Part shown: positions 3,787 to 7,067 of the stretch, in pieces
How the letters are laid out: each line of letters opens with the position of its first letter
Numbering within the stretch: position 1 is the first letter of the stretch
Assembly: GCF_003334305.1 (NCBI RefSeq)
Contig: NZ_QOWS01000044.1
Source: Escherichia coli
Lineage (GTDB): Bacteria; Pseudomonadota; Gammaproteobacteria; Enterobacterales; Enterobacteriaceae
DNA: 8,189 nt
Reading direction: 5' to 3' (one strand)
Translations under genes and position numbers: made by a program
The notes under the pieces: model-generated
Database searches by the model: none
Seen by the model: the letters and a program-made list of their open reading frames with translations, nothing else
Told to the model about the DNA's origin: nothing

Positions 3787-5121
3787 TTATTTCTGCAATT
3801 CCATACGTTTAATGTCGCCAACTACGAAGAGGTAGCAGACCATCGCCATCAGCGCTGAACATCCCACGAAAACCAGTGCTGCATTGAAGGAGTGCAGTTC
3901 ACTTACCAGGTAGCCAATCACCAGTGGAGTGACAATGGAGGCAACATTGCCAAAGACGTTAAAGACGCCGCCACAGAGGCCAACAATCTCTTTCGGCGCG
4001 GTGTCAGAAATCACCGGCCAGCCCAGAGCACCAAATCCTTTGCCAAAAAAAGCCAGCGCCATCAGCATGACCACCAGCGTGGTGTTGTTGGTGTAGTTAC
4101 ATAAGATGATGGTGGAAGCCAGCAACATTCCCAGCACAATCGGTAGCTTACGTGCCAGGGTCAGGGATAAACCGCGTTTGATCAGATAATCCGAGAAGAC
4201 ACCTCCCAGCACGCCGCCCGCAAAACCACACAGTGCCGGAATCGAGGCGACCAGACCCACTTTCAGAATCGACATGCCTTTTTCCTGCACCAGATAAATC
4301 GGGAACCAGGTGAGGAAGAACCAGGTGATGGTGTTGATAAAATATTGTCCGAAAAATACGCCCAACATCATGCGGTTAGAGAGCAATTGCTTGATGTAAT
4401 GCAGTTTGGGACCGCTTGCTGCCGCGCTGCCCGGCTTTTTGTGGTCCATATCGACCACCGCGCCATTTTCAGAGATAAACTTCAGCTCTTCCGCAGACAT
4501 ACGTGGGTGATCTGTCGGGTTATGAATCAATTTGATCCACAGCGCCGTCAGCACAAAACCAATCACCCCCATAACGGTAAAGACGTGCTCCCAGCCCCAG
4601 GCGAAAGTCAGCCAGCCAAGCAGAGGCGAAAAGAGCGCCAGCGAGAAATATTGCGCCGAGTTAAAGATGGCGGAGGCAGTACCACGTTCTTTCGTCGGGA
4701 ACCAGGCGGCGACAATACGGGCGTTCGCCGGGAATGATGGCGCTTCCGAGAAGCCGAGCATAAAGCGCATAAAGAACATGGAGATCCCTGCCCAGGCCAG
4801 CGGGAACATATCAACAAAGCCTTGCAGGAAAGTGAATAGCGACCAGAAAAAGAGGCTATAGGTATAAACTTTTTTCGAGCCAAACTTATCAAGCAGCCAG
4901 CCGCCGGGGATTTGCATCAGCAAGTAGGCCCAGCCAAAAGCAGAAAAGATGTAACCCATCGAAACCGCACTTAACTGCAACTCTTTTGCCACTTCGGTAC
5001 CAGCAATAGACAGCGTTGCACGATCGGCGTAGTTAACGGCGGTAACAATAAAAATAATCAGTAATATTAAATAGCGGGTATGCACGCCTTTCTTTTTTTC
5101 GTCAACGGTGTCCAGAATCAT
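3787..5121 (-). CDS. garP: Galactarate/glucarate/glycerate transporter, MFS superfamily, 444 aa
   Basis: 444-aa ORF, highly hydrophobic with multiple predicted transmembrane helices typical of an MFS anion:cation symporter. GAGG Shine-Dalgarno about 7 nt upstream of the ATG. First gene of the minus-strand operon. Confidence 0.92.
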   Translation of the reverse strand: MILDTVDEKKKGVHTRYLILLIIFIVTAVNYADRATLSIAGTEVAKELQLSAVSMGYIFSAFGWAYLLMQIPGGWLLDKFGSKKVYTYSLFFWSLFTFLQGFVDMFPLAWAGISMFFMRFMLGFSEAPSFPANARIVAAWFPTKERGTASAIFNSAQYFSLALFSPLLGWLTFAWGWEHVFTVMGVIGFVLTALWIKLIHNPTDHPRMSAEELKFISENGAVVDMDHKKPGSAAASGPKLHYIKQLLSNRMMLGVFFGQYFINTITWFFLTWFPIYLVQEKGMSILKVGLVASIPALCGFAGGVLGGVFSDYLIKRGLSLTLARKLPIVLGMLLASTIILCNYTNNTTLVVMLMALAFFGKGFGALGWPVISDTAPKEIVGLCGGVFNVFGNVASIVTPLVIGYLVSELHSFNAALVFVGCSALMAMVCYLFVVGDIKRMELQK

Positions 5122-5495
5122 TTTATTTACCTCGGGTACTTATGCTGATTTTTATTATTATGGAGAAGGTGTTATTTATGAGTTTCATTTATGCCGTAAC
5201 GGCAATGAACTCGGGAATTAGTATAAGCAGCGCGAGAATAATAATCATTGTGCAAATGCTAATTTAATTAATACTATTTAAATATTATTTTGAGCATATG
5301 CACATAAGGTTGCGCGCTAAAGCACAGATTTGCGCTTTACCTTGCCGGGCGGCACTGCAATCCCTGAAATGATTGACATTGATCACATTTCTGCGTTTAA
5401 ACTCCTGACATTCTTATTTCACCCAATGAAGTCATTTATTTTTAAATGAGACCAGGTCCTCATTTTAATAACCCCTGGCTGGAGAATATTGCACA
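5122..5495. promoter_or_regulatory. Divergent garP / garD intergenic control region (AT-rich)
   Basis: 374-bp non-coding spacer between divergent starts. It holds a very AT-rich tract (about 5240-5300), a TTGACA at 5373-5378, and several palindromes. The gar genes are known to be controlled by the CdaR (SdaR) activator, but I cannot place its sites with certainty. Confidence 0.6.
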
Positions 5496-7067
5496 ATGGC
5501 CAACATCGAAATCAGACAAGAAACGCCAACTGCGTTTTATATAAAAGTTCACGACACAGATAATGTGGCAATTATTGTTAATGATAATGGCCTGAAAGCA
5601 GGAACGCGTTTTCCGGATGGGCTGGAATTAATTGAACATATTCCCCAGGGGCATAAAGTCGCATTGCTGGACATTCCGGCTAATGGTGAAATTATTCGTT
5701 ATGGCGAAGTGATTGGTTACGCCGTGCGTGCAATCCCACGCGGAAGCTGGATCGACGAATCAATGGTTGTACTACCGGAAGCGCCGCCGTTACACACGCT
5801 GCCACTGGCAACCAAAGTCCCGGCCCCCTTACCGCCGCTGGAAGGATACACCTTTGAGGGCTATCGCAATGCCGATGGCAGCGTGGGCACCAAAAACCTG
5901 CTCGGCATCACCACCAGCGTCCACTGTGTGGCAGGCGTGGTGGACTATGTAGTAAAAATCATTGAACGCGATCTGCTACCGAAATACCCGAACGTCGATG
6001 GCGTGGTGGGGCTGAATCATTTGTACGGCTGTGGCGTGGCGATTAACGCACCGGCGGCAGTTGTGCCTATTCGTACCATCCACAATATTTCGCTGAACCC
6101 TAACTTTGGCGGCGAAGTAATGGTGATTGGTCTGGGTTGTGAAAAGTTGCAGCCTGAGCGCCTGCTGGTCGGCACGGATGATGTGCAAGCTATTCCAGTA
6201 GAAAGCGCCAGCATTGTCAGTTTGCAGGATGAAAAGCATGTCGGTTTTCAGTCCATGGTCGAGGATATTTTGCAGGTCGCCGAACGCCATCTACAAAAAC
6301 TGAATCAACGTCAGCGAGAAACCTGTCCGGCTTCAGAACTGGTTGTCGGCATGCAGTGCGGTGGCAGCGATGCCTTTTCTGGCGTAACGGCAAACCCGGC
6401 GGTTGGCTATGCGTCTGATCTACTGGTGCGCTGCGGCGCAACGGTGATGTTCTCAGAAGTCACGGAAGTGCGTGACGCGATCCATCTGCTGACACCACGC
6501 GCAGTGAACGAAGAGGTCGGCAAACGGCTGCTGGAGGAGATGGAGTGGTACGATAACTATCTCAATATGGGAAAAACCGACCGCAGCGCCAACCCTTCGC
6601 CGGGCAACAAGAAAGGCGGTCTGGCAAACGTGGTAGAGAAGGCACTCGGCTCCATTGCTAAATCGGGTAAAAGCGCAATTGTTGAAGTGCTGTCGCCCGG
6701 TCAACGCCCGACTAAACGCGGATTAATTTACGCCGCGACGCCAGCCAGCGATTTTGTCTGTGGCACGCAACAGGTGGCTTCGGGTATCACCGTGCAAGTG
6801 TTTACGACCGGTCGTGGTACGCCGTACGGCCTGATGGCGGTACCCGTCATTAAAATGGCGACCCGCACCGAGCTGGCGAACCGCTGGTTTGATTTAATGG
6901 ATATTAACGCGGGCACTATCGCCACCGGCGAAGAAACCATTGAAGAGGTGGGCTGGAAGTTGTTCCACTTTATTCTCGACGTCGCCAGCGGGAAGAAGAA
7001 AACCTTCTCGGATCAATGGGGGCTGCATAACCAGCTGGCAGTGTTTAACCCGGCACCGGTGACCTGA
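5496..7067 (+). CDS. garD: Galactarate dehydratase, 523 aa
   Basis: 523-aa ORF starting [26 protein letters not shown], with an SAF-like N-terminal domain and altronate/galactarate dehydratase family body. GGAGA Shine-Dalgarno at 5480-5484. Confidence 0.93.

Follow-up and report, generated by a model that had tools for sequence, protein, structure and literature searches.

The palindrome TGCCGT-A-ACGGCA in the garP-garD intergenic region is quite probably an incidental inverted repeat, specific to Escherichia and polymorphic among strains, that lies in the predicted garP leader, with CdaR acting elsewhere. At the DNA level, we detected no conserved role for the palindrome. The element through which CdaR acts is most likely not the palindrome but a box that the garP, gudP and cdaR promoters share, located upstream of garP at 5246-5263 with a second copy at 5290-5307; this assignment draws on the distribution and spacing of the box.

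By the window we mean the whole stretch of E. coli DNA that was analysed, 8,189 nucleotides in length. It covers the garKRL-garP/garD region, and the genes on either side of the palindrome are garP and garD, as the preliminary description had said. Coordinates in the window are those of K-12 MG1655 minus 3,269,786. The features discussed below are collected in Table 1.

Table 1. Coordinates of genes, repeats and predicted promoter elements in the garP-garD region.
Feature	Position	Strand	Remarks
garP CDS (galactarate/glucarate/glycerate transporter)	3787..5121	-	ATG at 5121; leader bears the palindrome
garD	5496..7067	+	Divergent from garP; intergenic region of 374 bp
Core palindrome TGCCGT-A-ACGGCA	5192..5204	none	Perfect as one allele only; K-12 right arm ACGACA
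Extended imperfect inverted repeat	5180..5212	-	12-pair hairpin on the garP sense strand
Predicted garP transcription start	5211..5213	-	Inferred; 7-9 nt past the conserved -10
Predicted garP -10 hexamer TATACT, context GCTGnTTATACTG	5225..5220	-	From conservation and shared spacing
Proximal candidate CdaR box ATTAGCATTTGCACAATG	5246..5263	-	About -51 to -34 if +1 is 5212; exactly 20 bp from the -10
Distal candidate CdaR box TTGAGCATATGCACATAA, near-palindrome	5290..5307	none	47 bp upstream of the proximal box, between the divergent genes
Shared-box copies outside the window	L002 2397-2416; L001 9244-9279	minus for L001

Sequence and frequency of the inverted repeat

The core, tgccgtaacggca at 5192-5204, is indeed a perfect 6-1-6 palindrome, and at 71-83 bp before the garP ATG it lies within the interval of about 60-90 bp originally given for it. 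The flanks, gagtttcattta (5180-5191) on the left and atgaactc (5205-5212) on the right, are near-complementary as described, with the correction that the repeat begins at 5180 rather than 5181. Their pairing requires one bulge and a 3-nt asymmetric internal loop.

Perfect palindromes occur in the window at the rate of shuffled sequence, and the core is not special in this respect. We counted perfect repeats whose arms were 6 bp or longer and whose spacers were 0-4, and compared the result with the shuffled window: the whole window holds 12, three of them with a spacer of 1, versus 10.9 ± 3.6 in the shuffles. For the 374-bp intergenic region, 0.61 perfect inverted repeats are expected, and the probability of at least one is 0.41. 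Upstream of garD, at 5433-5448, there is a perfect 6-4-6 palindrome, CATTTATTTTTAAATG, and the interior of garD contains a one-mismatch copy of the garP palindrome at 6380-6392, TGGCGTAACGGCA; both are consistent with chance. Queries of 601 bp and 61 bp placed the palindrome at one place per genome (median), and we therefore rejected a REP-type or mobile repeat, which would be present in multiple copies per genome.

Alleles within Escherichia

In K-12 MG1655 the palindrome is imperfect (TGCCGTAACGACA). Exact 61-mer matches among 5,426 complete E. coli genomes gave the allele of the window, which is perfect, in 1,187 and a second perfect allele, with a T at its centre, in 669; the imperfect K-12 allele was found in 2,015 genomes and a second imperfect allele in 963. 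At least 1,856 of these genomes thus carry a perfect form and at least 2,978 (at least 55%), K-12 included, an imperfect one. A control 61-mer about 200 bp away (5396-5456) was identical in 4,265 of the 5,426. All four non-coli Escherichia species that were retrieved have the imperfect form, which argues that the perfect palindrome is the derived state.

This variation bears on the possibility that the palindrome is an Escherichia-specific operator for a dimeric regulator other than CdaR, such as a repressor that acts as a roadblock at about +15. Repressor sites typically lie just downstream of the transcription start, and both the position just past the predicted start and the dyad symmetry of the sequence would suit such a site. 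However, the dyad is imperfect in the majority of E. coli genomes and in every other Escherichia species examined, and the 6-bp arms are short and occur at chance frequency. We know of no operator consensus that the palindrome resembles, and we regard an operator of this kind as very improbable.

Conservation across species and within the regulon

A scan for GarP in one genome per species yielded 80 garP loci with 86-100% protein identity. The perfect core, TGCCGTNACGGCA, is present at none of these 80 loci from other species; phylogenetic footprinting across Enterobacteriaceae, which had been proposed as a check, gave no sign of conservation. In alignments of the upstream regions of 71-72 non-Escherichia Enterobacteriaceae, the 13 core positions have a mean identity of about 0.3, and several of them, including C5196 and G5200-G5201, have 0% identity. 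The sequence that occupies the position of the palindrome in these species is unrelated to it. In the same alignments, identity at the -10 hexamer and at the boxes is 0.8-1.0.

The palindrome is likewise absent from the other promoters of the regulon that we searched. The gudP and cdaR upstream regions of K-12 contain no match even when 3 mismatches are allowed, and nine further loci from other genera (5 cdaR, 4 gudP) have neither the perfect core nor its two E. coli allelic variants. The preliminary description had listed three outcomes that would count against a CdaR operator, and two of them are what we observed: orthologous intergenic regions do not conserve the palindrome, and it is missing from the gudP and cdaR promoters, where a search for it had been suggested.

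The garP promoter and a box shared with gudP and cdaR

A scan of the intergenic region with the sigma-70 consensus returned no promoter and no canonical -35. The lack of a canonical -35 fits an activator-dependent promoter with a poor -35, and because the scan was empty, we assigned the garP -10 from conservation. Among 72 non-Escherichia species the hexamer TATACT keeps an identity of about 90% or higher, and in the gudP and cdaR promoters it recurs with the same spacing from the shared box. When 75 distinct promoters are aligned without gaps on the -10, distances are constant between about -110 and +10, and the consensus on the garP sense strand is ...AAATcTGTGCATcAGCGCCCA...TGTGCATATGCTCAA...TTAATTGaGCattTGCACAATG-N20-TATACTGAaTCaCGATTTcAT.

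We found no experimental mapping of the garP start site in the literature, and the supplements of two Cappable-seq papers have no garP entry. With the start predicted from the -10, the extended repeat (5212..5180) would form the first ~33 nt of the garP transcript, and the core would fall at about +9 to +21. Both this placement and the label 5'-terminal that we use below follow from the predicted start and would change with another one. The palindrome is centred 22 bp downstream of where the -10 hexamer ends. In bacterial promoter architecture, activators are not expected to bind downstream of the -10, so the palindrome lies on the wrong side of the promoter for an activator.

The garP, cdaR and gudP promoters have a different element in common, a box of the form TTGwGCA-NN-TGCwCAAT located 21 bp upstream of the -10. 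The shared architecture, CAATG-N20-TATACT/TATGCT, is found at garP and also in the cdaR promoters of 6 genera and the gudP promoters of 5. In K-12, each of the three promoters has exactly one TTGCACRRTG-N20-TATRCT in the correct orientation, and the pattern is also present in the garP promoters of 27 other species. Upstream of garP, the box AGCATTTGCACAATG (5260..5246) shares 14 identical nt with a sequence upstream of cdaR, and both are followed by exactly 20 bp and then by TATACT or TATGCT; the gudP counterpart is GTTGCACGGTG-N20-TATACT.

This arrangement is kept in other genera. The cdaR promoters of Salmonella, Dickeya, Pantoea, Pectobacterium and Klebsiella retain TGCACAATG-N20-TATGCT/TATTCT, and the Salmonella and Pantoea boxes are perfect 6-2-6 palindromes, TGTGCA-NN-TGCACA. 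In Serratia, Pantoea, Dickeya and Cedecea, the gudP promoters retain a box ending in (C/G)ArTG-N20-TATACT/TATAAT, and those of Serratia and Cedecea have an additional distal box, TTGgGCATATGCC or TTGTGCGTATGCC. The core of the distal garP box, GCATATGCACA, is 80-100% conserved, and the box matches the motif with 2 mismatches. Searching the window with the 16-bp pattern TTGTGCANNTGCACAA gave matches at 5248-5263 and 5290-5305 and two 3-mismatch matches in coding sequence, with 0.6 expected. The K-12 gudP region has no match to this pattern at up to 3 mismatches, and only the promoter-proximal half of the box and the spacing are common to it.

We infer that these boxes are the sites of CdaR; the proximal one would then cover the -35, in the manner of a class II activator. 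Our literature search found no experimentally defined CdaR operator (footprint, EMSA or ChIP); a candidate SdaR motif obtained by comparative genomics has been published as a logo (Rodionov et al. 2010, PMC2996990).

The main reading of the preliminary description was that the palindrome is the operator for a CdaR dimer that activates garP. It does have dyad symmetry and lies in a CdaR-dependent intergenic region, and a preprint presents a dimeric model of CdaR. However, it fails on every defining feature of such an operator that could be tested, namely sharing, conservation and position: it is not conserved across species, the gudP and cdaR promoters do not have it, and its position is downstream of a conserved -10. 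Moreover, K-12, where CdaR regulation was defined, carries an imperfect form, and the garP, gudP and cdaR promoters share another box at fixed spacing. We consider the probability of a CdaR operator at the palindrome to be close to nil. As an operator candidate the palindrome is of no import, the comparative data having removed that reading. A by-product is a testable map of the garP promoter, consisting of the -10 at 5225..5220 and the boxes at 5246-5263 and 5290-5307, and the mapped boxes are where CdaR binding could be sought, for example by groups building CdaR/PgarP biosensors.

Other elements of the region

Several other elements were noted. At 5311-5331 there is a block, TGGGCGCTnATGCACAnATTT (TTGCGCGCTAAAGCACAGATTT in E. 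coli), that is 80-100% conserved in 72 species; it contains one box half only, and no obvious hexamer in the garD direction stands at the box-to--10 spacing. Positions 5372-5392 correspond to the high-affinity CRP site of the garP/garD region identified by Footprint-seq, with a Kd of 1.9 nM (PMC12871828). The CRP half-sites (TGTGA-N6-TCACT) are conserved in other genera, and in 6 genera the cdaR box is likewise preceded by a CRP-like site. The sequence CCTGACATTCTTATT (5404-5418) lies some 80 bp ahead of the garD ATG and hardly varies among 72 species. It is possibly the core promoter of garD, with the CRP site then centred ~43 bp upstream of a start near 5425.

Within the garP coding sequence, near its start, there is an AT-rich stretch, ACAATAAAAATAATCAGTAATATTAAATAG (~5040-5075). 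Chen et al. 2007 (PMC2189734) showed that a Fur site inside garP shifts with Fur in vitro and predicted a weak Fur cluster for the garPLRK promoter.

A predicted hairpin in the garP leader

The preliminary description had also suggested that the repeat could be a stem-loop in the garP 5' leader. Its position is compatible with this suggestion and its stability is moderate, but selection for pairing finds no support, as there is no covariation. On the garP sense strand, the predicted fold is GAGUUCAUUGCC-GUUAC-GGCA-UAA-AUG-A-AACUC, with 12 pairs and a 5-nt loop, and the stem begins at G5212, 0-1 nt from the predicted +1. The allele of the window folds at -11.3 kcal/mol (z -3.3; 2 of 200 shuffles fold as well) and the K-12 allele at -8.6 kcal/mol (z -2.3; 7 of 200). 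The K-12 change, C to U in the RNA, leaves a G.U pair.

Could this hairpin be a functional 5'-terminal stem-loop, under selection in Escherichia, that protects the garP mRNA or tunes its translation, so that the alleles differ in expression? The hairpin is moderately stable and sits at the predicted +1. The commonest polymorphism keeps a wobble pair, with one stem position alternating between C-G and U.G among Escherichia alleles, and the outer stem GAGUU/AACUC (five pairs) is invariant in 11 Escherichia sequences. Several other genera also have a different, longer inverted repeat at roughly the same place. However, invariance within one genus at 96% identity says little, and none of the changes among the same 11 sequences (8 distinct) is compensatory. 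Four of the 8 distinct sequences, including alleles of ~1,600 genomes, break the C8-G29 pair, and a second stem pair is broken in 1 of the 8 (one species). Across 49 leaders of other genera, RNAalifold found no consensus pairs, and the folding z-scores of other genera's leaders centre on 0. Taken together, these observations make a selected, functional stem-loop unlikely.

Because the fold beats most shuffles, the outer stem is invariant and the K-12 change still pairs as G.U, weak selection is conceivable, and the Escherichia 5' hairpin may be under weak selection as an RNA structure. Nevertheless, we think that it is probably an ordinary leader hairpin that is unselected.

5'-terminal stem-loops can hinder 5'-end-dependent decay by RppH and RNase E. 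Transcription of the extended repeat (5212..5180, minus strand) would place a hairpin at the 5' end of the garP mRNA, where it could hinder decay by these two enzymes. By analogy with ompA-type 5' stem-loops, the net effect would be at most a modest stabilisation of the garP message; if the hairpin is active, a small strain-to-strain difference in garP mRNA stability would be the result. One may speculate further that the Escherichia-specific 5' hairpin provides post-transcriptional control of garP and that the C-G, U.G and stem-broken alleles set transporter levels between lineages, a proposal that we find decidedly doubtful.

Three further candidates for the leader were examined. A conserved leader structure, or an E. 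coli hairpin that is a remnant of one, found no support, given the missing RNAalifold consensus and the ambiguity of pairwise alignments in the middle of the leader. An intrinsic terminator or attenuator was rejected, since there are no terminator-like sites in 5050-5560 and the stem is followed by AUAAAUAACACC, with no U tract. The Rfam 15 covariance models gave no match at E ≤ 1 on either strand of 5000-5600. The predicted fold of the garD leader is unremarkable.

The garP leaders of other genera are ~20 nt longer and differ in sequence after +12, and their single-sequence folds suggested two elements, a long hairpin rich in A+T and a second stem that encloses an A-rich loop. Leaders L048, L049, L038, L046, L051, L015, L044 and L065 (locus positions ~1895-1945) bear a long AT-rich inverted repeat, such as CTGATTATTTATTGA...TCAATTAAATAGTCAG. 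It occurs in Kluyvera, Superficieibacter, Citrobacter and others, with arms that differ between genera and are apparently matched; Escherichia does not have it. An A-rich run, AAUAAUAAAAAU (5149-5160, minus strand; at the same place in L007-L082), is conserved in the garP leader. Its (ARN)4 form is one to which Hfq or ribosomal protein S1 could attach. When leaders of several genera are folded singly, differing stems flank the run (GCCTTA/TAAGGC, CACCTG/CAGGTG and GCTTTAAT/ATTAAAGC). The sequence GUrCCCGAGG, around the garP ribosome-binding site, shows conservation as well.

The E. coli garP leader further contains a 21-codon upstream ORF, MKLINNTFSIIIKISISTRGK (5123-5188, minus strand). The ORF starts within the 3' arm of the hairpin and terminates 1 nt short of the garP ATG, and it has no clear Shine-Dalgarno sequence. 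Since alleles of ~1,600 E. coli genomes have ATA in place of its ATG and other genera lack the ORF, it probably has no function.

Comparison with known systems

Compared with the gar/gud regulon sites of CdaR (SdaR), an activator of the PucR/CdaR family, the palindrome is alike in its intergenic location and its dyad symmetry. It differs in having no sequence in common with the shared box, in lying downstream of the -10 rather than over the -35, and in being unconserved.

The stabilising stem-loop of the ompA 5' UTR, studied by Belasco and colleagues, is reportedly conserved and experimentally defined. The garP hairpin resembles ompA-type 5' stem-loops in its predicted location 0-1 nt from the 5' end, its moderate stability and its distance from the ribosome-binding site. 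Unlike them, it is a prediction only, it has no covariation, and common alleles break a stem pair.

Chance short palindromes share with the garP palindrome a frequency equal to that in shuffled sequence, and the garP palindrome is, like them, single-copy, polymorphic and lineage-specific. The garP repeat departs from them in that its flanks extend the pairing to 12 pairs and that it folds somewhat better than random sequence (z -2.3 to -3.3).
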